Shown: positions 1-30,121 of the stretch, piece by piece
Layout: every line of letters starts with the position of its first letter
Numbering within the stretch: position 1 is the first letter of the stretch
Assembly (NCBI RefSeq): GCF_000155895.1
Contig: NZ_DS995298.1
Span: forward strand, 1,290,001-1,322,000
Origin: Candidatus Pelagibacter sp. HTCC7211
GTDB taxonomy: Bacteria; Pseudomonadota; Alphaproteobacteria; Pelagibacterales; Pelagibacteraceae
DNA length: 32,000 bases
Direction: 5' to 3'
Made by a program: the position numbers and the translations under genes
The notes under the pieces: generated by a model
What the model saw: the letters and a program-made list of their open reading frames with translations, nothing else
The model's database searches: none
Told to the model about the DNA's origin: nothing

Positions 1-300
1 CATCCAATAGTAAGAACACATCCTGAAACAGGTAAGAAAATTTTATATGTTAACTGGACCTACACAAAACAGATTATAGGTTTAGAAAAAGAGGAAAGTG
101 ATCAAGTTTTAAAGGAAATATTTGAACATCAAGCTAGATTGGATCTAACCTGTCGATTTAGTTGGACAGAAGACACTGTTGCTATTTGGGATAATAGAAG
201 TGTAATTCATTATGCAATAGCAGATTTTTTTCCTGGAAGAGGTCTTGGATACGAGAGAATAATGGATCGAATTGCAATTGAGGGTGACCATCCTCAATAA
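1..300 (+). CDS. tauD: TauD/TfdA-family Fe(II)/2-oxoglutarate dioxygenase, C-terminal fragment (5' end outside window)
   Basis: Frame 1 is open from base 1 to TAA at 298-300. The translation HPIVRTHPETGKKILYVN...VAIWDNRSVIHYAIADF...IAIEGDHPQ aligns by eye with the C-terminal third of E. coli taurine dioxygenase as I recall it. The substrate cannot be determined from sequence. Confidence 0.8.
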   Translation, partial: HPIVRTHPETGKKILYVNWTYTKQIIGLEKEESDQVLKEIFEHQARLDLTCRFSWTEDTVAIWDNRSVIHYAIADFFPGRGLGYERIMDRIAIEGDHPQ

Positions 301-308
301 GTAAGATT

Positions 309-340
309 TAAATTCTTAATAAATTAATATAAATTCTTAA
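309..340. repeat. Two exact 11-bp direct repeats TAAATTCTTAA, 21 bp apart, between the tauD-like stop and the GMC oxidoreductase start
   Basis: 309-319 and 330-340 are identical. The start-to-start spacing is 21 bp, about two helical turns. Confidence 0.5.
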
Positions 341-345
341 AAATT

Positions 346-1929
346 ATGAAATTTGATTATTTAGTTATTGGTGCAGGTACAGCAGGATGCGTATTGGCAA
401 ATAGGTTGTCGGAGAATTCACAAAATAATGTTGCGATTTTTGAAGCAGGAAAAAATAGTGATATTTGGAAAGTAAACATGCCACTTGCAATTTTGTATAC
501 GATGCATGATCCAAAATATAATTATAAATATTATTCAGAACCTGAACCTCACTTAAATAATAGAAAACTTTTTTGTCCAAGAGGAAAGATGATTGGCGGC
601 TGCTCTGCTCATAATGGAATGGTTTATGTAAGAGGAAATAAAAATGATTATGAAAGATGGGCTTCGTTTGGACTAAGAGATTGGTCATATGAAAAAGTTT
701 TACCTTTCTTTAAAAAAATTGAAACTTGGTCTGAAGGTGAGAACGAGTATAGAGGTGGAAGCGGCATACTTCCGATTAATCAATCTAAAAATAAAAACCC
801 ATTATTTAGTGCTTTTTTAAACTCAGCTAAAGAAGCAGGTCATAAAATTAATAATGATATGAATGGAGAAGATCAGGAAGGCTTTGGAATGTATGATGTT
901 ACCATTCATAAAGGTGAAAGAGCTAGTGCTTCCAAATATTATTTAAATCCAGCCAGAAAAAGAAATAATTTAAAAGTATTTACAGAAACATTTGTTGAGA
1001 AAATTATTTTTGATGGAAAAAAAGCAATAGGAATTGAAGTTAAAATTAAAAATAAAGTTGAAAAAATATATGCAAATAAAGAAATAATACTTAGTGGTGG
1101 ATCAATAAATTCACCCCAATTACTTATGCTTTCAGGTGTTGGACCAGCAGATCACTTAAAGGATAAAGGAATTGAAGTAATTCATGAACTTAAAGGGGTT
1201 GGTAAAAATCTACAAGATCATTTAGAAACCTATATTCAACAAGAATGTAAAACTCCAGATACTTTATATTCATATGTCAACAAATTGAATATGGTTAGAA
1301 TTGGAATTCAGTGGTTTCTAAATAAAAGTGGTCCCTGCTCTACATCATTTTTAGAAGCTGGAGGATTTTGCAAATCATCAGCAGATAAAGAGTATCCAAA
1401 TATTCAGTTCCACTTCTTTCCTGCATTTGTAATAGATCACGGCACGGTGGATCCTGACCGACATGGATTTCAATTACATGCAAGTTTAAATCAACCAAAA
1501 AGTAGAGGACAAATTACATTGAATAGTTCAAATCCTTATGATTATCCAAAAATTCAATTCAATTACTTAGAAGATGATTATGATCTTAAAGAGACAATTA
1601 AGTGTATTCACGTAGCAAGAAAAATACTTAGTCAAAACTCTATGAAGCCTTATACGGGAAAAGAAGTTGGTCCAGGCGAAAGTGCTCAAACAGACAGTCA
1701 AATCGAGGAATATATTAGATCAAAAGCAGAAACTGCTTATCATCCTTCTTGCACTCTTAAAATGGGTGTAGATGATATGGCTGTAGTTGATGAAAAACTT
1801 AAAATACATGGATTACAAAATATAAGGGTTGCCGATGCTTCTATAATGCCTGAAATAACAAGTGGTAATTTAAATGCACCTACCCTAATGATTGGAGAAA
1901 GAGCATCTGACTTTATTATGAATTCATGA
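346..1929 (+). CDS. GMC-family FAD oxidoreductase (choline-dehydrogenase-like)
   Basis: 527-aa ORF. It has an N-terminal FAD Rossmann motif DYLVIGAGTAGCVLANRLSE, the GMC signature GGCSAHNGMVYVRGN, and the C-terminal HPSCTLKMG...RVADASIMP...GNLNAPTLMIGERASD. Its stop overlaps the next start (ATGA 1926-1929). Confidence 0.9.
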   Translation: MKFDYLVIGAGTAGCVLANRLSENSQNNVAIFEAGKNSDIWKVNMPLAILYTMHDPKYNYKYYSEPEPHLNNRKLFCPRGKMIGGCSAHNGMVYVRGNKNDYERWASFGLRDWSYEKVLPFFKKIETWSEGENEYRGGSGILPINQSKNKNPLFSAFLNSAKEAGHKINNDMNGEDQEGFGMYDVTIHKGERASASKYYLNPARKRNNLKVFTETFVEKIIFDGKKAIGIEVKIKNKVEKIYANKEIILSGGSINSPQLLMLSGVGPADHLKDKGIEVIHELKGVGKNLQDHLETYIQQECKTPDTLYSYVNKLNMVRIGIQWFLNKSGPCSTSFLEAGGFCKSSADKEYPNIQFHFFPAFVIDHGTVDPDRHGFQLHASLNQPKSRGQITLNSSNPYDYPKIQFNYLEDDYDLKETIKCIHVARKILSQNSMKPYTGKEVGPGESAQTDSQIEEYIRSKAETAYHPSCTLKMGVDDMAVVDEKLKIHGLQNIRVADASIMPEITSGNLNAPTLMIGERASDFIMNS

Positions 1930-2876
1930 CAACAGCACAAAACAATACCAAGGGTATTCTTTTTATTCTTGTTGGAATGGTTGTGTTTTCAATTCAGGAT
2001 GCATTAATTAAATTCATATACGAAGACTCTGCGTTGTATGAATTATATCTAGGAAGAACCCTATCAGCTGCATTTTTTTTATTTTGTTATATGAAATTTA
2101 CAAAACAAAAAATTATTTTTAAAACTCACTACCCATTTTTAACTACTTTGAGAATTATATGTTTTTTCTTTGGTTTTAGTTTTTTTTATATTTCACTAAC
2201 ATATATGTCACTTGCAATGGCAAATGCTTTATTTTTTTCTAGTCCATTTTTTGTTTCAATTTTAGCAGTATTATTCTTAAATGAAAAAGTTGGGATTAGA
2301 AGATGGCTTGCAATTTTATCAGGATTTATTGGGGTATTTATCGTTTTAAATCCAGATTTTAGTGATTTTGAATATAAGAAACTAGCACCAATTGCATGTG
2401 CTTTATGCTACTCGATATCAATGACAATTACCAAATATACTTCTGACAAAGATAATTCTTACACTCAGATGACCCATTTGTATATTGGAGCAACCATTAT
2501 AAGTATTTTATTTTTTATTTTTACAGGTAAAGGTCAATTTAATAATTTTAGTGATCCTACATTTCAATTTATTTTTAGAGAATGGTTTATAAACCCAACT
2601 TATGCTTGGCCAATTATAATCTTAATGGGATTTATTGGAGCTTTAGCATTTTTTTGTATATTTAATGCGTACAGCATTGCATCTCCGTCAGTAGTTTCTT
2701 TATATGAATATTCTTTAATTATTTGGTCAATTATGATTGGCTATATAATATTTGATAATGTGCCAACATTAAGAACTTTTATCGGTATTTCAATTATTAT
2801 AGGAGCGGGGATATATATATATTTAAGAGAAAAAGTAAAAGATCAAATGATTGTAACAGATACTCCTAATAGATGA
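1926..2876 (+). CDS. EamA/DMT-superfamily transporter (paralog 1)
   Basis: 316-aa, highly hydrophobic ORF with about 10 helices and a two-EamA-half architecture. ATGA overlaps occur at both ends. Confidence 0.85.
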   Translation: MTTAQNNTKGILFILVGMVVFSIQDALIKFIYEDSALYELYLGRTLSAAFFLFCYMKFTKQKIIFKTHYPFLTTLRIICFFFGFSFFYISLTYMSLAMANALFFSSPFFVSILAVLFLNEKVGIRRWLAILSGFIGVFIVLNPDFSDFEYKKLAPIACALCYSISMTITKYTSDKDNSYTQMTHLYIGATIISILFFIFTGKGQFNNFSDPTFQFIFREWFINPTYAWPIIILMGFIGALAFFCIFNAYSIASPSVVSLYEYSLIIWSIMIGYIIFDNVPTLRTFIGISIIIGAGIYIYLREKVKDQMIVTDTPNR

Positions 2877-3829
2877 GAGCTAAAGATAATAATTCAAAAG
2901 GTATCCTGCTTATAATTATTGCAATGACATTGTTTGCAATGCAAGACTCTTTAATCAAATTTATTTTTGAAAAATCTGCTCTTTATGAAATTTTCTTTGG
3001 AAGATACTTTGTTGCTGCAGTTTTGCTTTTTTTTTATATCAAATTTAAAAAACAAAAAGTTAATTTAAAAACACATTACCCTGTCCTTACTTTTGTAAGA
3101 GTCATTTTACATTTTCTAGCTTTTTCTGCTTTTTTTATATCCTTAACTTATATGCCTTTAGCAACAGCTAATGCACTTTTTTTTTCTTGTCCTTTTTTTG
3201 TATCAATTTTTGCAAAATTTTTTTTAAAAGAATATATTGGGATTAGAAGATGGTCAGCAATTGCTTTTGGATTTTTAGGAGTATTTATAGTGCTTAATCC
3301 AAATTTTTCAGAATTTGAGTATAAAAGTTTACTTCCAGTAGGATGTGCATTTTTTTATGCTGCATCTATGACTATAACAAAATACACATCCGATAAAGAT
3401 GATGTAAATACTCAACTATTTTACTTTTATTTAATTGCTATAGCTCTATGCGGTTTGATTTATATTTATATGGGTAATGGTCAATTTAATAATGCAAACT
3501 ATGACTCAACTACCCAATTTATTTTTAGAGAATGGTTTTCAAACATAGAATATACGTGGAAATTTATATTATTTTTTGGTGTAGCTGCATCTATTGCTTT
3601 TGTTTGTATTTTTTCTGCTTATATTATTGCTTCACCTTCTGTAGTTTCGTTATTTGAGTATTCTTTAATTATAATGTCTATGATACCTGGATATTTTTTA
3701 TTTAATGAGATTCCATCTACCAGAACTTTTATAGGTGTTGCTTGTATAATATCAGCTGGAATATATATTTATTCAAGAGAAAAAGTTAGAGAACAGTATA
3801 TTGCTACTGAGACACCTGTTAGAAGATGA
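2873..3829 (+). CDS. EamA/DMT-superfamily transporter (paralog 2, tandem duplicate of the preceding gene)
   Basis: 318-aa ORF that is colinear with the upstream gene. By hand count about 110 of the first ~166 aligned residues are identical (e.g. LTYM.LA.ANALFFS.PFFVSI, GIRRW, GVFIVLNP.FS.FEYK, SMTITKYTSDKD). Confidence 0.85.
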   Translation: MRAKDNNSKGILLIIIAMTLFAMQDSLIKFIFEKSALYEIFFGRYFVAAVLLFFYIKFKKQKVNLKTHYPVLTFVRVILHFLAFSAFFISLTYMPLATANALFFSCPFFVSIFAKFFLKEYIGIRRWSAIAFGFLGVFIVLNPNFSEFEYKSLLPVGCAFFYAASMTITKYTSDKDDVNTQLFYFYLIAIALCGLIYIYMGNGQFNNANYDSTTQFIFREWFSNIEYTWKFILFFGVAASIAFVCIFSAYIIASPSVVSLFEYSLIIMSMIPGYFLFNEIPSTRTFIGVACIISAGIYIYSREKVREQYIATETPVRR

Positions 3830-4797
3830 CCAAAAATTATATACCAACTATAAACATATCCTCACTAATTAGAGATGAATTTAAAACTCAAAATGCATTA
3901 AAAATAATCAAAAAAATTGAAAAGGCTTGCGTTGAGGTAGGTTTTTTTCAAGTTACTGGCCATGGAATAGATATTAAAAAGATAAATAATATCTGCAAAA
4001 TTGGAAATAGATTTTTTAATTCTTCAGAAATAAATAAAAACAAATTGGCTCCAAAAAAATGGAATAATAAAAATAAAAACTTATATCGAGGTTACTTTCC
4101 AAATACTGTAAATGGTAAAGAAGGATTAGATTTAGGAGATCTTAAAATAACATTAAAACATGTAAGAAAATATAAGTCTAAATATATTGAATATTTAGAT
4201 CTTAAAAAATCCTTGGATAAAACATCTATAAAAAGTTTATCAAATTATTTTGATGAAATTTTTTCTTTAAGTGAGATATTATTTAAAAGCATAATAAGAC
4301 TTTACAATAAAGATGAAAATATTAGCAGAAAAGCTTTTTCAAGAATAAAAACTTTAAGTACCTTAAGATTTAATTACTATCCAAATCAAAATAAGCCAGT
4401 AGAAATTTCAAAACAGGATGGGGTTGCTCTTGGTTGTGAAACACATGTTGATAGTGGGATATTTACTGTACTATACCAAGATAAAAAAGGTGGGTTACAA
4501 TTTCAAAATAGAAGAAATAAAAAATGGTATGATGTTCCATTTAATAAAAATGCACTAATCGTTAATACTGGTTTAGCGTTAGAATATTTAAGTATGGGTA
4601 AATTTAAAGCAACTAATCACAGAGTTTTATGGAATAAAACTAAGAGAATGTCTATTCCTTTCTTTTTTGAGCCATCATATGATTTTAAAATGTCTCCTTC
4701 ATTTTTAAATGGGAATTCGTATAATAAAAATAAAGGTATAATTTTTGAGAAATTTTTAAAAAAATCTTTAGAAAAATTTATTGAATACCAAAGATAA
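3826..4797 (+). CDS. 2OG-Fe(II) oxygenase (isopenicillin-N-synthase-like / DIOX_N + 2OG-FeII_Oxy)
   Basis: 323 aa with a DIOX_N-like N-terminus (IPTINISSL...GFFQVTGHGI). The catalytic set is complete: H-x-D in CETHVDSG, distal His in ATNHRV, and R-x-S in KRMSIPFF. Confidence 0.85.
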   Translation: MTKNYIPTINISSLIRDEFKTQNALKIIKKIEKACVEVGFFQVTGHGIDIKKINNICKIGNRFFNSSEINKNKLAPKKWNNKNKNLYRGYFPNTVNGKEGLDLGDLKITLKHVRKYKSKYIEYLDLKKSLDKTSIKSLSNYFDEIFSLSEILFKSIIRLYNKDENISRKAFSRIKTLSTLRFNYYPNQNKPVEISKQDGVALGCETHVDSGIFTVLYQDKKGGLQFQNRRNKKWYDVPFNKNALIVNTGLALEYLSMGKFKATNHRVLWNKTKRMSIPFFFEPSYDFKMSPSFLNGNSYNKNKGIIFEKFLKKSLEKFIEYQR

Positions 4798-4825
4798 AAT
4801 TAAAACATATAGATATGTTTAAATA

Positions 4826-5566
4826 ATGATTTACCTTCATAAAATCCTCCCTCTAATTTTTAGTCCATTAATGCTGATAATGGTATTAATTATTTTTGGA
4901 GTAATTATTAATTCAAAAAAAATAAGCATAATTGGCATATTTATTTTAATCGTTTGCTCTTTACCTATTGTTTCTGACAAATTAGTTGCTTACCTTGAAT
5001 CTGATTATCAATTAAGCAAACCCTCTAATATTGAGCCTGCTGACTCAATAGTTGTTTTGAGTGGTATGATTAGAACTATAAACTCTAAAGATGGTTTAGA
5101 TTATGAATTCGGTGAAGCATCTGATCGAATTTTTGCAGGAATAAACTTATTTAAAGAAAAAAAGGCCCCTAAACTAATTCTTACTCGAGGAAAATTACCA
5201 TGGTCTGTTGGAATTCCAGAAGGTGAATATTTGAAAGAAATTGCAATCAATAATGGAATATCAGAAAATAATATTCTTTTAACTGAAAATGTAGAAAATA
5301 CTGACCAAGAAGCAAAAGCTATTAAAAAGTTACTTTCTGAAGATAAGTCTAAGGTTTTACTGGTTACTTCTGCATTTCATATGCCAAGAGCTCAAAAAGT
5401 CTTTGAAGCTGCCGGTATAAATGTGGTCCCTTTTCCTGTTGATTTTCAAAAAGGATTATCAAAAATTACTTTTATGAGTTTCATACCTTCTGCAAATGCG
5501 CTAAGTGGGACAAGTTTTTTTGTAAGAGAAATGATAGGTAGAATTTATTACAATTTAAAGTATTAA
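4826..5566 (+). CDS. YdcF/DUF218 (ElyC-like) family membrane-anchored protein
   Basis: 246 aa. Two N-terminal hydrophobic helices are followed by a DUF218 core containing VTSAFHMPRA. Confidence 0.75.
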   Translation: MIYLHKILPLIFSPLMLIMVLIIFGVIINSKKISIIGIFILIVCSLPIVSDKLVAYLESDYQLSKPSNIEPADSIVVLSGMIRTINSKDGLDYEFGEASDRIFAGINLFKEKKAPKLILTRGKLPWSVGIPEGEYLKEIAINNGISENNILLTENVENTDQEAKAIKKLLSEDKSKVLLVTSAFHMPRAQKVFEAAGINVVPFPVDFQKGLSKITFMSFIPSANALSGTSFFVREMIGRIYYNLKY

Positions 5567-5716
5567 CTTTAAATAGAAGTAATTTCCATATTCCCTAGAA
5601 CTTAAAATTGTGCTAAGATTTATATTGTAAAGAGCGATACATAACTCATCGTTATATCCAATACGAAAGTGGGATCGGTCGTCTTTTTTTAAATTAGAAA
5701 GTTTAAAGGAGGAAGC

Positions 5717-6886
5717 ATGAATTTTGGATACTTTTGCAATACTACTAACTGGACACACAAGCCTTACCACGAACTATTAGATGAAACTAGAGAAATTACA
5801 GAATATTGTGATCAAAATAAATGGGATTCTATTTGGTATACCGAACATCACTTTAATCACGAAGGAATGGAGTCTTGTACTAACCCTTTAATGATGGGTG
5901 TAGATGCGGCTGCAAGAACTAATCAAATTAGAATAGGCCAAGCCTGTAATGTAATTACGTTTCATAATCCCATACAAATGGCTGAGGATGTAGCTCTTTT
6001 AGATCAATTATCAAAAGGCAGAGTCGAAGTTGGCATTGGCCGGGGTATTTATGGTAGGGAAGCAGTTAATCTAAATATCGAAGCTGACATGAAAGATCAG
6101 GCTAAAAATTTTAGATTGTTTGAAGAAACTTTAACAATTTTAAAAAAAGCTTGGAAAGAAAAATTTTTTGATCACAAAGGTGAATTTTACACGTACCCAT
6201 CACCTGATTATGTGTGGCAACATGATATGAGTAAACCTAGTGAAGAATTTATGGATATGAAAACTAATGTAATGAAAAAGATTAGTGTTCTGCCTCAACC
6301 ATATCAAAAACCTTATCCACCAATTCATCAAGTTGTAGATGGCATTAGATCAATTGAATGGGCTGCGCAACAAGGATTAAATATTATTATGTGGATACCA
6401 ACAGTCAAAGCTTTAAAAATTAAATTTGAAGCATTTAAAAATGCAAAATCTGAAGCTGAAAAAAGAAACGTTCCAATGGGTGAAGGAATTTCATTAGTTA
6501 GAGATATGTTTGTTGCCGACACTATGGAAGAAGCAAAAGAAAAAGCTGGTGAACATATGGTAAATTATATGCGATGGGTATGTCACTGGAGAGGGCTTGG
6601 AAATCATATGGATCCAGGCGAAGAATTGCCTGAAACTAAAGGTAAATTAGATTTATTAAATTACGAATTTTTACATAAAAGAAACATGTTATTTGGTACA
6701 CCTGAATATGTTACAGACAAAATTCATGAGTTAAAATCTGAATTAAACTTACAGAATTTACAAGTTTGGTCCAATTTTCCTGGAGTAAAACATAAAGACT
6801 GCATGAAAAGCATAAAACTTTTTACTGAAAAAGTTATGCCTAACTTCAAAAATGATATTGATACTGAAATAAAAAAAGTTTCGTGA
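5717..6886 (+). CDS. LLM-class (luciferase-like) flavin-dependent monooxygenase/oxidoreductase
   Basis: 389 aa with typical LLM blocks (WDSIWYTEHHF, RIGQACNV, LDQLSKGRVEVGIGRG). A strong SD (AAGGAGGAAGC) lies directly upstream of the ATG. This is the first gene of a tightly coupled six-gene run. Confidence 0.85.
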   Translation: MNFGYFCNTTNWTHKPYHELLDETREITEYCDQNKWDSIWYTEHHFNHEGMESCTNPLMMGVDAAARTNQIRIGQACNVITFHNPIQMAEDVALLDQLSKGRVEVGIGRGIYGREAVNLNIEADMKDQAKNFRLFEETLTILKKAWKEKFFDHKGEFYTYPSPDYVWQHDMSKPSEEFMDMKTNVMKKISVLPQPYQKPYPPIHQVVDGIRSIEWAAQQGLNIIMWIPTVKALKIKFEAFKNAKSEAEKRNVPMGEGISLVRDMFVADTMEEAKEKAGEHMVNYMRWVCHWRGLGNHMDPGEELPETKGKLDLLNYEFLHKRNMLFGTPEYVTDKIHELKSELNLQNLQVWSNFPGVKHKDCMKSIKLFTEKVMPNFKNDIDTEIKKVS

Positions 6887-6900
6887 TCAAATCACGAAAC
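6878..6900 (+). promoter_or_regulatory. Perfect 10-bp stem / 3-nt loop hairpin spanning the LLM stop codon, just upstream of the ThDP-enzyme ATG
   Basis: GTTTCGTGAT-CAA-ATCACGAAAC. The arms are exact reverse complements. The TGA stop (6884-6886) and the candidate GTG start (6883) lie inside the 5' arm, and ATG 6904 follows 3 nt after the 3' arm. Confidence 0.5.
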
Positions 6901-8583
6901 AAAATGTCTGGTGGTCAAGCTGCCGTTAAGTCTTTAAAAAAAGAGAACGTTGAACATGTCTTTGGTCTCATTGGTTCTGCAACAATGGAAATGTTTGATG
7001 CTCTTTATCATGAAAAAAAGATAAAATTTATTGGTGTACGAGATGAGAGAACTGGCACTCACATGGCCGATGGTTATGCCAGAGCATCTAATAAACCGGG
7101 TGTTATTTTAGCTGGACAAAATGGCCCAGGAGCTACCAATTTGGTAACAGGAGTCGCTCAAGCAAAAGCTGCTTTCTCTCCAGTAGTTGCAATTGCAGGA
7201 TCATATTCAACTAAAGATAAAGTTGAAGATGCATTTCAAGGTCTTGATCAGCAATCTTTATTTAAACCCATTACAAAAAAAACTTGGACTGTAAAAAAAT
7301 CTAAAATTATTCCTCAAGTAATTAGTGATGCTTTTGGACTAGCAATGAAGCCTAGAAGAGGACCAGTTTGCATTAATTTACCTAGAAATATTTTAGCAGC
7401 AACAGAGAACTATAATATAAATGTAAAAAAACCTTCATTTGATAGCGAAAGTTACCTTAAAGGAAACAAAGAAAAAATTACAAGAGCAGCAAAGATAATA
7501 AGTCATGCAAAACAATTTGTGATAATTGCTGGTGGTGGGATTAAATATACTTCTAAATATTTAGAAGTGATTAAGCTTGCAGAATTATTAAATACGCCAA
7601 TAGTTACCGCTGCAGGTCATGGGGATGCCATACCATTTAACCATAAACTTAACGCAGGCCAAATGGGACCTCGTGGAAACCCTGTTGCATCACGGCTTGT
7701 GAAAGAAGCAGATGTTATTTTGGCGATTGGAACCAGGTTAGGTTTTAATTCTACTTTTTATAGCTACGATAATATCAATAAAAAAGCAAAAATTATTCAA
7801 ATTGAAATTGAAAAAAAAATGCTGGGCAAATATTTTCCTGTTGTTCTAGGTATCAATGCTGACGCAGCCACAGTCACTAATCAAATATATAATGAAATCA
7901 AAAAACAAAAAATTAAACTAGATATAAAAAATTGGACAAATGAATTTTTAAAACAAAGAAAAGATTATTTAACTGATAGAGAAACTAATAATCTAGGTAA
8001 AAATTTTCCTATTCAACCAAAAGGTTTGTTTAAACAATTAAGAAAAGCGTTACCAAAGGATACAGCTATTACTTTAGATGCAGGAACTTTATGTTTACAA
8101 GCAACAGATGCTCTCAAATATTATAATCCTCCTTCTTTATTCACACCTTTAGATTTTGGTTTGGTAGGTTTTTCGTTTGCCTGCGGTCTAGGAGTTAAGG
8201 TTGCAAAACCAAAAAAAACTGTTGTTAGTTTAATGGGCGATGGTGGATTTGGTATGACAATTTCTGAATTAAGCACAGCAGTAGAATATAGAATTAACAC
8301 AACAACCATAGTAATGAATAATCAAAGTTGGGGAGCAGAAAAAGCCTACCAAAAAGATTTTTTTGGGAAACGATACCTTGGTGCAGACATCCGTAGCCCT
8401 TCATTTGATAAAGTTGCAGAATTATATGGTGCAAAAGGCTTTAAAGTAAAAAAAATTTCTGAAATAAGTGAGGCAGTTAGAGCTGCAGTGAAATCAAATA
8501 AACCTGCAGTGGTTGATGTTGATGTTGACCCAAGTGCATTATATAGTTTTAGAAGAGATAGTTTTAAACATAGGCAAAAATAA
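6883..8583 (+). CDS. Thiamine-diphosphate-dependent enzyme (acetolactate-synthase-like / sulfoacetaldehyde-acetyltransferase-like superfamily)
   Basis: 566 aa with the three-domain ThDP layout. The PYR domain carries AGQNGPGATNLVTG and the ThDP/Mg motif is GDGGFGMTISELSTAVEYRINTTTIVMNNQSWGAEK. The track start is GTG 6883 (GTGA overlap), but ATG 6904 (MSGGQAAV...) is at least as likely. Confidence 0.85.
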   Translation: MIKSRNKMSGGQAAVKSLKKENVEHVFGLIGSATMEMFDALYHEKKIKFIGVRDERTGTHMADGYARASNKPGVILAGQNGPGATNLVTGVAQAKAAFSPVVAIAGSYSTKDKVEDAFQGLDQQSLFKPITKKTWTVKKSKIIPQVISDAFGLAMKPRRGPVCINLPRNILAATENYNINVKKPSFDSESYLKGNKEKITRAAKIISHAKQFVIIAGGGIKYTSKYLEVIKLAELLNTPIVTAAGHGDAIPFNHKLNAGQMGPRGNPVASRLVKEADVILAIGTRLGFNSTFYSYDNINKKAKIIQIEIEKKMLGKYFPVVLGINADAATVTNQIYNEIKKQKIKLDIKNWTNEFLKQRKDYLTDRETNNLGKNFPIQPKGLFKQLRKALPKDTAITLDAGTLCLQATDALKYYNPPSLFTPLDFGLVGFSFACGLGVKVAKPKKTVVSLMGDGGFGMTISELSTAVEYRINTTTIVMNNQSWGAEKAYQKDFFGKRYLGADIRSPSFDKVAELYGAKGFKVKKISEISEAVRAAVKSNKPAVVDVDVDPSALYSFRRDSFKHRQK

Positions 8584-28241: not shown

Positions 28242-29213
28242 CTACCTAGCAATTAAATCAAAATCGAAATAAGCACTATCAAAATATCCAATCATATTTG
28301 TAGTGCTAGTCATACTTTTTGTTATACCTCTGGTATTATTGTATTTGATTTGAAGACCAGTAGTTTGAGGGGTAATTTTCATTGTTGTTGCAAGTGGCAT
28401 TACACCAATTATTCTTGCAATATCGTGATCTGCACCGCCAGTACAACCTGCTATACCATTTTTAATTTGGTCTGTGTCTGTAGCTCCAACTCCATCAAGA
28501 AGTGTCAAATCTGACTCTACTAAATAAGCATCGATATTAACACTCGTACCTTGAAAAGTTACTGCATGATAGCAATCATCATCACTATCCATTGTTAATG
28601 TATTAACTCCAATTGTTGTCTCGGCAGCAGTTGCGCCTGAAGTACAGTCTACATTTGATTTTGCAGCAGTATTAATTCTGTTTTCAAAACCGTATATTGT
28701 TCCAAGAGATGATACTTTTGTTACACAAGTTGTCGAAGTATTTGATCTGTCACTCATCGTAGCATCAAAAAGTTGGCTTGTCGTGAATTTAAATGTAGAA
28801 CCCATAGTGACAATTGCGAAAGTATAATTTCCATAAGGTAAAGCAGTATAATCTGCAGCAGTTCCTATTTGAGTACCTGTTCCTTTTACAACTGTTGTCT
28901 CAGACCCACTATCATTCTTGAAAAATGTAGAACAATTAGTTCTTACTACTTGTGCAGATGTTGTTGGACCAGTTGGTCGAGAAGTACATAGATCTAATCT
29001 ATAAAAAGTTATCTTTTGAGCATCAGGAGTAAATTCACATCTATTGTTTGCAGCAGCAGGAGTTATAGTTCCTCCATTACCGTTGCATTCTGGATCATTT
29101 CTACTTACCGTAGTTCCAGGCTGTGCATTTGTAGCTGTTGAATAGAATGTTATACTAATCAAACTTAAAAATAATATTATAAAAAATATTCTAATATTTA
29201 AATCAGCTTTCAT
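28242..29213 (-). CDS. Secreted Thr/Gly/Ser-rich, 8-Cys protein of unknown family
   Basis: 323 aa. It has a Sec-type signal peptide (MKADLNIR-IFFIILFLSLISITFY-STATNA|QPG). The mature part is poor in Lys/Ile relative to the rest of the window, beta-strand-like, and has 8 Cys. It starts 3 nt after the barrel gene stop. Confidence 0.6.
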   Translation of the reverse strand: MKADLNIRIFFIILFLSLISITFYSTATNAQPGTTVSRNDPECNGNGGTITPAAANNRCEFTPDAQKITFYRLDLCTSRPTGPTTSAQVVRTNCSTFFKNDSGSETTVVKGTGTQIGTAADYTALPYGNYTFAIVTMGSTFKFTTSQLFDATMSDRSNTSTTCVTKVSSLGTIYGFENRINTAAKSNVDCTSGATAAETTIGVNTLTMDSDDDCYHAVTFQGTSVNIDAYLVESDLTLLDGVGATDTDQIKNGIAGCTGGADHDIARIIGVMPLATTMKITPQTTGLQIKYNNTRGITKSMTSTTNMIGYFDSAYFDFDLIAR

Positions 29214-29216
29214 AAA

Positions 29217-30059
29217 TTAAAATCCTATTACTGTTAAATCCATTTCTTTTTGTTTTACAATTAAGTTTTGTCTTCTAACTTTTGCAAATTTTTGATCTGA
29301 AACTGAAGTTAAATTATAGGCGGTGTCACTTATTCCAATTTCGTTATTTGAATTATTACAACAAGTATAAGTTATTTTTAAAAATTCCTCATCTTCAGTA
29401 ACTCCATCATTACTTCTTTTTCCAATTTCAATATTAAAATTTGTAAGTTTTGCTTCTAGTGATATCTCATCTCCTTCTAGATCTGCTGCACCACTAGCAC
29501 CTTCCCAGTTAAATGATCTATAGTATAAATTTGTCCATGGCAGATAAGGTAATGGCATACCTAATTCTACGTCGCTACCATTTAATGCTTTCTCATTTAT
29601 ATTATTTAATCCTGATTTCCAGCCAGAAAGACCGTAATATTGATTAGCTCTTAACGATCCAACACTTGATATTGCTTCAATACCAATACTTGCTCTTTGG
29701 TGATCATAATCTAATTCATGATCATAGAATAAATTATAACCAACTAATAATGTATCATCATTAATCAATTTTCTATTACCAAAACCTAAATTGATAGTTT
29801 CTCTGCTATCGTCTGATAAAAATAAACTTGCTTGAGTGAAGATAATATTTTCATTATCACTTGGATCACTTATAGGTTTTACTACTAAAACACTTCCCGT
29901 AACTTCATTTGTTACACCTGTACTTAAACCAATTTCAGCAGTTGGGAATTTATCACTAAAATAACTATTCAAGTTATTCATAAACTTATTGGTTAGGTCT
30001 ATAGCATTAGCACTTAAGCTATATAATAAAATTATGAAAGTTAATTTAACTATTTTCAT
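29217..30059 (-). CDS. Stand-alone inverse-autotransporter (intimin/invasin-type, IAT_beta) outer-membrane beta-barrel protein
   Basis: 280 aa with signal peptide MKIVKLTFIILLYSLSANA|ID. Several blocks are colinear with the intimin beta-domain as I recall it:
- IIFTQASLFLSDDSRETINLGFGNRKL
- LVGYNLFYDHELDYDHQRASIGIEA
- LRANQYYGLSGW
- EKALNGSDVELGMPLPYLPW
- LYYRSFNWEG
The C-terminus ends in ...VIGF, an aromatic OMP beta-signal. Confidence 0.75.
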   Translation of the reverse strand: MKIVKLTFIILLYSLSANAIDLTNKFMNNLNSYFSDKFPTAEIGLSTGVTNEVTGSVLVVKPISDPSDNENIIFTQASLFLSDDSRETINLGFGNRKLINDDTLLVGYNLFYDHELDYDHQRASIGIEAISSVGSLRANQYYGLSGWKSGLNNINEKALNGSDVELGMPLPYLPWTNLYYRSFNWEGASGAADLEGDEISLEAKLTNFNIEIGKRSNDGVTEDEEFLKITYTCCNNSNNEIGISDTAYNLTSVSDQKFAKVRRQNLIVKQKEMDLTVIGF

Positions 30060-30066
30060 TCACTAA

Positions 30067-30095
30067 ATTTTATTAGATTTAATTAAAATTTACAA
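30067..30095 (-). promoter_or_regulatory. Sigma70-like promoter candidate for the barrel gene (TTGTAA-N17-TAAAAT)
   Basis: On the - strand: TTGTAA (30095-30090), a 17-nt spacer, then TAAAAT (30072-30067), then 7 nt to the ATG at 30059. This would give a nearly leaderless mRNA. Such matches are common by chance in AT-rich DNA. Confidence 0.25.
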
Positions 30096-30102
30096 ATTAT
30101 AT

Positions 30103-30121
30103 TAAACCTAATTTAGGTTTA
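30103..30121 (-). terminator. Weak terminator-like palindrome after msrB
   Basis: AAACCTAA-t-TTAGGTTT (30104-30120) begins 5 nt after the MsrB stop on the - strand. It is followed by an AT-rich tract but no clean U-run. Confidence 0.3.

Follow-up and report, generated by a model that had tools for sequence, protein, structure and literature searches.

Organisation of the locus

The 32,000-nucleotide stretch analysed here, from Candidatus Pelagibacter sp. HTCC7211 (contig NZ_DS995298.1, positions 1,290,001 to 1,322,000; hereafter the window), has a GC content of 31% and contains two adjacent open reading frames (ORFs) on its (−) strand. They belong together as a single obligate module, best explained as a split inverse autotransporter (IAT). 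The first, at 29217..30059 with the stop codon included, encodes a 280-residue IAT β-domain with no passenger. The second, at 28242..29213, is 100% identical to PB7211_1156 of HTCC7211 and encodes a secreted, Thr-rich protein of 323 residues with eight cysteines, referred to below as the partner. The barrel protein ends in ...KVRRQNLIVKQKEMDLTVIGF (DLTVIGF), followed by TAA, and a 3-nt spacer, TTT (29214..29216), leads to the partner ATG; in the window the two ORFs share one frame, with TAA TTT between them.

Both products begin with what, judged by eye, are typical N-terminal Sec signal peptides. That of the barrel, MKIVKLTFIILLYSLSANA (30003..30059), has a predicted cleavage site between ANA and ID and is kept in homologues; that of the partner, MKADLNIRIFFIILFLSLISITFYSTATNA (residues 1–30; 29124..29213), is predicted to be cleaved between TNA and QP. 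A Shine-Dalgarno-like AGGA for the partner gene (29223..29226) lies within the Ile278-Gly279 codons at the end of the barrel gene, 9–12 nt 5′ of the partner ATG, and this placement, together with the short spacer, is consistent with translational coupling of the partner to the barrel gene. The original prediction, made from the DNA alone, had proposed just this layout: an IAT β-domain lacking a fused passenger, a separate partner gene 3 nt downstream in the same frame, and a signal peptide on each product. All of these elements stand.

The barrel protein

A Pfam search matched residues 23–265 of the barrel protein (29265..29993) to PF11924 (IAT_beta) with E=8.1e-35 and 121 bits against a cut-off of 22.3, the match covering positions 31–279 of the 279-position profile. 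Pfam returned nothing beyond IAT_beta, with neither LysM nor Big domains, and after the match the protein holds only a 15-residue linker and tail. In NCBIfam many IAT adhesin models matched in part, each scoring far under its cut-off because the passenger is absent. The top 120 homologues of the barrel are all 256–290 residues in length and have PF11924 as their only domain. Four further barrel groups match IAT_beta with E values of 1e-32 to 1e-38, and in five independent barrel groups the Pfam model ends 15–18 residues before the stop.

A profile made from nine diverse passenger-less barrels aligns with chain residues 4–241 of 245 in invasin 4e1t (E=7.6e-32) and with residues 4–238 of 242 in intimin 4e1s, and so spans nearly the whole of both crystallised β-domains. 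An AlphaFold2 (AF2) model of the barrel, of moderate quality (predicted local distance difference test, pLDDT, 58.7), has 13 strand segments, the last of them in a low-confidence region, and its best Foldseek matches are to invasin and intimin structures (4e1t, 5g26 and 4e1s; E~1e-8, TM score 0.51–0.59). Together these comparisons establish, or support well, that the barrel is a complete type Ve β-domain comprising a signal peptide, a 12-strand barrel, a periplasmic turn, a linker and a strand at the barrel mouth.

Position of the C-terminal tail

Comparison with intimin indicates where the barrel protein stops. According to Leo and colleagues (PMC13078405), intimin residues 412–430 form a periplasmic α-helical turn, after which the linker passes through the lumen of the barrel; a strand of short length, with E447 and Y448, then pairs with extracellular loops 4 and 5, and four extended residues connect this strand to the first Ig-like passenger domain, D00. 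In 4e1s the segment reads R434-YDLVQRNNNII-(LEYK449), with residue numbers that agree with that study, and the D00-D0 structure 6tqd starts KQDILSLNIP.

Profile alignment to 4e1s and 4e1t equates the linker of the window protein, KFAKVRRQNLIVKQK (29247..29291), with intimin R434–Y448, that is, with the lumen-crossing linker (K257–L266) and the short linker-terminal strand at the barrel mouth (I267–K271, IVKQK). The residues that follow, encoded at 29220..29246 and aligned with intimin K449–N457, are a connector, EMD (E272–D274), and a tail strand, LTVIGF (L275–F280), which takes the place of the first strand of D00. The chain thus ends 9 residues past the terminal strand of the linker, after a 3-residue connector and one strand, and as aligned the gene encodes a full β-domain plus exactly one strand of a would-be passenger. 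Because LTVIGF occupies the position of the first D00 strand, ...VIGF is no conventional β-signal of a last barrel strand. Its earlier designation as an outer-membrane-protein type of barrel end does not hold; it lies past the lumen-crossing linker.

The linker itself is strongly conserved. The barrel segment VRRQNLIVK aligns with intimin VQRNNNIIL and follows the motif V-x-R-x-N-x-I-V-K, in which V261, R263, N265, I267 and K269 are invariant across the nine diverse barrels. Also invariant across these nine is R122, which corresponds to intimin R288, a lumen residue that touches the linker. Since this arginine is conserved, the linker is probably threaded as in intimin, and the comparison suggests, by inference, that the tail emerges on the outside.

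The partner protein and its family

The mature partner is rich in Thr (17.7%, against 4.8 ± 1.1% in other ORFs of the window) and poor in Lys (3.4% against 7.9%), with its eight cysteines at positions 43, 59, 76, 94, 163, 190, 214 and 257. Searches of Pfam, NCBIfam and PDB sequences with single sequences and with a 102-sequence profile gave no match, and Pfam yielded nothing consistent for any of the 102 family members, in agreement with the initial description of a Thr-rich, Lys-poor, 8-Cys protein of no known family. In Pfam there is likewise no sign of a two-partner secretion (TPS) domain and no Big or immunoglobulin-superfamily (IgSF) sequence signature. The AF2 model of the partner, from a 24-sequence alignment, is unusable (pLDDT 31.6).

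The partner family comprises 192 clusters at 50% identity, and the members are annotated in all source records as 'hypothetical protein'. Nearly all are stand-alone proteins of 260–345 residues with a signal peptide, six near-invariant cysteines and an N-terminal motif C..C..QPD.Y..T.Y...LC..P.AP. They end in a strand with the consensus G-P-F-x-h-x-h-x-h (h, hydrophobic), which in the window protein is DSAYFDFDLIAR (28245..28280). A homologue search with a diverse partner profile returned mostly SAR11 sequences again, and a tblastn search of plasmids with two distant partners gave no match.

Two long members carry additional domains. P0390, encoded downstream of an IAT gene, has three cadherin-like domains followed by the partner domain, and P0284 has the partner domain followed by BNR/sortilin repeats. 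Domains of these two kinds, cadherin-like and BNR, are usual on extracellular proteins, and the two fusions, together with the outlier composition of the partner, are hints that it may be extracellular. Neither protein contains IAT_beta, and no fusion of IAT_beta to a partner was found among the best 150 of the 192 family clusters. The partner probably acquires its disulfides in the periplasm. In some partners (P0244, P0245, P0249, P0251, P0252, P0260, P0295 and the protein encoded at 6001–6999 of locus L010) the chain continues past its last strand with an additional basic stretch, K[RT]xR[RG][AGS]WR-stop.

Conservation of the barrel-partner pair

Gene neighbourhoods were collected through context look-ups and a metagenome scan, both seeded by partner sequences only (the scan with a 5-sequence partner subgroup), and yielded 59 distinct partner genes with readable upstream DNA. 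As the loci were found from the partner side, the linkage is unbiased toward barrels. A passenger-less IAT barrel directly precedes 53 of the 59, a count that includes three barrels (L015, L029 and L040) assigned by hand from IAT linker and tail remnants at contig edges or a frameshift. Among SAR11 genomes, the barrel lies directly before the partner at all nine loci with upstream sequence. The partner loci span contigs of 31–62% GC in unrelated neighbourhoods, and no third gene family recurs beside the pair across lineages; in particular there is no linked usher, chaperone, processing protease or obvious translocator.

The single frame of the window ORFs, with TAA TTT between them, would fit a normal fused IAT interrupted in this strain by a nonsense mutation or by an error of sequencing, and two unrelated genes could also lie side by side by chance. 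The comparative data refute both ideas, and we give them practically no credence. Spacing between barrel and partner ranges from −4 to +15 nt (−4, −1, 0, 1, 2, 3 and 15); the frame is therefore not conserved, and a read-through fusion is excluded. Every partner carries a signal peptide of its own, the uniform length of the barrel homologues tells equally against a truncated fusion, as does the lack of fused proteins in the clusters described above, and the pairing recurs over the whole GC range. We conclude that barrel and partner form an obligate, translationally coupled two-gene module that is old and conserved.

A second, divergent pair stands in tandem with the first in three of these SAR11 genomes, with an identity of ~36–39% for the barrel and ~27–36% for the partner. 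This second module lies between msrB and the window-type pair in SAR11 single-cell genomes (L002 1646–3370, L006 3334–5079 and L008 2–1648), has a 6-Cys partner and a barrel tail F[ST]VKAGGF, and is absent from HTCC7211; the site is therefore an insertion/deletion hotspot for such modules. The tandem modules differ both in their tails (DLTVIGF as against F[ST]VKAGGF) and in their partners, which speaks for a possible cognate specificity between the two.

Exchangeable anchors and a shared tail

The gene upstream of the partner does not always encode a plain barrel. Tiny lipoproteins take the place of the barrel in three lineages. At L012-14 the upstream ORF is lipoprotein-like and encodes 48 residues, ...LSAAGC, then GSKTTTAPVSKAPFTGTFAGY and a stop, ending FTGTFAGY. 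A 42-residue lipoprotein-like ORF is found at L020 (...GLVAC, then GGGADPLTVTVKGF and a stop), and a lipoprotein-like ORF cut by the contig edge at L075 (...LSLASC, then GGGSSSSGGGSSGFSVGVQGF and a stop, ending GFSVGVQGF). Larger anchors are a 204-residue lipoprotein with two repeated β-rich domains at L076/77 (...ATFAAGVQGI-stop), a 351-residue secreted non-IAT protein with a Ser/Thr-rich linker at L019/21/22 (...PPTFSVGVSGF-stop) and a 690-residue IAT with a coiled-coil N-terminus of ~400 residues at L018 (...KFSVTASAI-stop). In the four lipoproteins among the non-IAT anchors, position +2 is occupied by Gly, Ser or Asn.

What these proteins have in common is their C-terminus. Barrel tails read EMDLTVIGF, F[ST]VKAGGF, GF[IT]AKAVGV, KFSATASGF, KLGVTVSGY and GFAVTVSGY, and can be described by the motif [FLIVMAY]x[AVILFTG]x[AVILFT]x[GA][FYVI]-stop, i.e. 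h-x-h-x-h-x-G-F/Y. It was found by script in 54 of the 59 anchors, and in 57 of 59 after mis-picked ORFs had been corrected, against 1 of 563 background ORFs of at least 100 residues; the shorter G[FY]-stop occurs in 24/59 anchors and 0/563 background ORFs. The tail, not the barrel, thus appears to be the constant of the upstream gene, common to barrels, lipopeptides and other anchors.

The anchor tail also resembles the partner's own C-terminal strand, as in GAGFTAKAVGV compared with GSGPFSTFMTVE, which raises the possibility of strand exchange or of head-to-tail assembly. The same likeness, with anchor tails of the form G-F-x-h-x-h-x-G-h, was noted across pairs, for example at L023, L015, L075 and L012.

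A proposed strand-docking mechanism

Our preferred reading, to which we assign a probability of roughly 45%, is that the tail strand holds the partner without a covalent bond, through addition or complementation of a β-strand, that the upstream protein is its membrane anchor, and that the IAT version displays the partner on the cell surface. In the window pair the barrel gene supplies a type Ve β-domain, a linker that probably runs through the lumen and one extra strand, LTVIGF, in the D00 position. The partner, translationally coupled to the barrel and exported separately by Sec, would dock on the tail strand; the barrel, as an outer-membrane anchor, would then hold it at the cell surface in a roughly 1:1 ratio, replacing the covalent passenger. 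The element needed by the partner would be the tail and not the barrel; in other lineages a lipid-anchored peptide or a different secreted protein bears this tail. To cross the outer membrane the partner might use a pore formed by the nascent barrel and the β-barrel assembly machinery (BAM), or type II secretion, after which the exposed strand would catch it. On this reading the partner is a putative passenger, exposed at the surface.

Put more generally, and more tentatively still, there may be a widespread, hitherto unrecognised 'strand-tag' tether, in which a C-terminal strand of ~8 residues on an IAT barrel, a lipid-anchored peptide or a lipoprotein captures a cognate disulfide-bonded partner of ~290 residues by strand complementation. 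If this is true, SAR11, which is the most abundant bacterium of the ocean, and many further lineages would possess a natural split-domain form of type Ve surface display. Strand docking, if true, would also mean that type V display need not be covalent and that the tag is transferable between barrels and lipid anchors, with a bearing on the mechanism of secretion and on the engineering of surface display. The partner would join the small set of candidate proteins for the cell surface of SAR11. In this dominant marine organism the surface controls how nutrients are captured, how phages attach and how cells are grazed.

Several observations weigh against the docking of a surface-displayed partner. 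The partner model is too poor (pLDDT 31.6) to show a missing strand or a docking groove. We know of no outer-membrane route for a separately exported protein with 6–8 cysteines. The partner gene at L074 (148–1131, P0275) has no upstream anchor ORF. The barrel tails could be explained by IAT architecture alone, and the Gly codon of the tail often doubles as the Shine-Dalgarno sequence of the partner. The idea that the terminal Gly-Phe is a mere by-product of this embedded signal is partly rejected by the L024/L030 group, which keeps ...SGF with its Shine-Dalgarno sequence, AAGGAG, in the 15-nt spacer; the tail is therefore at least partly under constraint at the protein level. As a separate observation, the N-terminus of the L074 partner (...VLIGMAC, then EVSG) might itself be lipid-modified.

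The remaining objections concern the compartment. The default orientation of lipoprotein anchors in Proteobacteria is toward the periplasm, and if the partner occupies one compartment in all variants, that compartment would be the periplasm. In addition, the barrel has a vicinal Cys233-Cys234 (29358..29363). The intimin alignment puts this pair where strand 12 ends on the periplasmic side, and it co-occurs with the two extra partner cysteines, C214 and C257, in 10 of 10 cases as against 0 of 22, within the SAR11 pair-1 clade only. This co-occurrence probably reflects a single evolutionary event; it hints at a periplasmic contact and perhaps an intermolecular disulfide.

These points favour a partner that is periplasmic and tethered under the outer membrane through the C-terminal strand of its anchor, in SAR11 perhaps with disulfides to the periplasmic rim of the barrel. 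Such an arrangement would also suit the partner's own Sec signal, the lack of an obvious translocator in the module, the lipoprotein nature of four non-IAT anchors and the six near-invariant cysteines, which suggest periplasmic folding. We nevertheless consider this reading, the main rival, unlikely. The linker motif and R122 are conserved, and in intimin everything past the linker is extracellular. The composition of the partner is unlike that of the periplasmic binding protein encoded in the window (Thr 17.7% as against 4.9%, Lys 3.4% as against 10%), and the cadherin-like and BNR fusions, like the Ser/Thr-rich linker of one anchor, are typical of extracellular proteins.

Relationship to known systems

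Canonical IATs such as intimin EaeA and invasin InvA (PF11924; 4e1s, 4e1t) share with the window protein a signal peptide, a 12-strand barrel that is homologous over its full length, the linker motif V-x-R-x-N-x-I-I/V and the lumen arginine. They differ in that their passenger is covalently attached at the C-terminus, whereas the window barrel has none, nor LysM or any other periplasmic domain; here the rest of the 'passenger' comes from a second gene, whose product has a signal peptide of its own and shows neither a Big nor an IgSF signature in its sequence.

Terminal β-strands that complete the fold of another polypeptide are well known from donor-strand complementation, in chaperone-usher pili and in the type V pili of Bacteroidota, which have lipoprotein anchor subunits. 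The strand-docking reading has in common with these systems the idea of a short terminal strand, a possible lipoprotein anchor and a tail that resembles the partner's C-terminal strand, but the pair lacks linked genes for an usher, a chaperone or a processing protease, no sequence relationship was detected, and strand exchange is hypothetical here. Type Vb two-partner secretion (FhaC/FHA) similarly has a barrel gene that adjoins the gene of a separately exported protein; its barrel, however, is of the Omp85 type with POTRA domains and its substrate carries a TPS domain, in contrast to an IAT_beta barrel and a partner lacking that domain.

The concept of a barrel with a non-covalent passenger is not new, and the view behind the original prediction that no system with separate barrel and passenger had been described does not stand (Tsai et al. 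2010, PMC3008723; Heinz et al. 2016, PMC4943183). Tsai et al. found α-proteobacterial Int/Inv proteins that consist of the barrel only, with a function 'completely unknown', and proposed 'non-covalent passenger domains' downstream of others (Yfr4, Ahy1), further short sequences having no informative context (PMC3008723). Heinz et al. introduced the term 'two-partner inverse autotransporters' on the basis of ZirT/ZirS and also recognised an architecture that is 'invasin_beta-only' (PMC4943183). The window protein is an α-proteobacterial case of these invasin_beta-only barrels, which are also found in cyanobacteria and chlorobi, and has the same architecture; the difference is that their gene context was uninformative, whereas a conserved partner is identified here. 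Intimin/invasin-type barrels without passengers, known since 2010, thus gain both a conserved partner and a testable docking element.

The closest parallels in gene order are the two-partner IATs of the ZirT/ZirS/ZirU, SinH/SinI, Yfr4 and Ahy1 operons, in which the genes after that of the IAT encode proteins with Sec export of their own, which have been proposed as non-covalent passengers or substrates. Most of these IATs keep C-terminal Big or Fn3 domains (Ahy1 has been described as a barrel-domain protein), of which the window barrel has none. Their partners are recognisably Ig-like or Rat-like, whereas the partner here belongs to an unrecognised family, and a C-terminal tail shared by barrels, lipopeptides and other anchors was not found described for them.

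By analogy, the barrel could translocate the partner in the manner of ZirT and ZirS and then release or loosely retain it, the linker and tail serving as a displaceable plug or docking site. There is precedent in ZirTS itself and in the model of Heinz et al. (PMC4943183), Tsai et al. proposed that barrel-only Int/Inv proteins translocate non-covalent passengers (PMC3008723), and the operon arrangement is conserved. Against this, the 12-strand lumen is already filled by the conserved linker and has no space for a second chain, the partner cysteines would oxidise before transport, and the barrel lacks the substrate-binding Big domains of ZirT. Tight translational coupling suggests a stoichiometric complex and not a catalytic pore, and the scheme fails to explain why lipopeptides or a soluble protein with the same tail can stand in the barrel's place. 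We regard it as unlikely, slightly more so than the periplasmic tether.

Literature searches by locus tag, for IATs in Pelagibacter and for 'passenger-less' IATs found nothing specific. We found no earlier account of the partner family, of its almost invariable association with barrels that lack a passenger, of a split placed one strand inside the passenger, or of a tail common to barrels, lipopeptides and other anchors. The feature as a whole is real, both conserved and widespread, and previous papers foresaw it only in part. Large surface proteins of the type V class have been found in SAR11, a 2025 study having described large classical autotransporter adhesins in coastal members, and type V proteins are therefore not alien to this group.

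Genomic neighbourhood and related loci

The genes around the pair in the window are unrelated housekeeping genes, encoding MsrB, a histone-deacetylase-family protein, a glutaredoxin, a DUF2805 protein, LysE and a periplasmic binding protein. Two upstream features that had been taken to mark an independent transcription unit are no better than chance. The promoter-like hexamers TTGTAA-17-TAAAAT upstream of the barrel gene (30067..30095, (−) strand) belong to a class of sites that is rarer in the window than in shuffled sequence (9 found, 15.6 expected). The palindrome TAAACCTAAATTAGGTTTA after msrB (30103..30121, (−) strand), proposed as terminator-like, forms a weak hairpin with a folding energy of −6.6 kcal/mol (z=−1.36), nothing unusual in AT-rich DNA.

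Several of the loci have further features. The anchor encoded at L019 1839–2894 and that at L076 305–919 share a repeated β-rich domain, ..Y.I.V.....G..C.V.NG......V.NV.V.C, which has no Pfam match. At L018 (1759–13008) the genes of the 690-residue coiled-coil IAT and of P0390, the cadherin-like partner that goes with it, have an integrase-like gene on one side and a resolvase gene on the other, which suggests carriage by a mobile element.

In Candidatus P. ubique HTCC8051 (L010, NZ_KI421440.1) a larger cluster (1–5032) occupies the same chromosomal site, upstream of the pair at 5125–6999. It encodes two more partner paralogues (21–920 and 1040–2113), a FecR-domain protein, a 335-residue secreted protein and, at 2144–3460, a 438-residue predicted outer-membrane protein that matches DUF2860 (E=3e-6). 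The last was considered as a Slam protein (surface lipoprotein assembly modulator, a DUF560 barrel with N-terminal TPR), an assignment that was rejected as the match was to DUF2860 and not DUF560. The paralogue at 1040 is preceded only by a 13-codon ORF, MKNLAYFLSIGGF and a stop, which ends in ...SIGGF.

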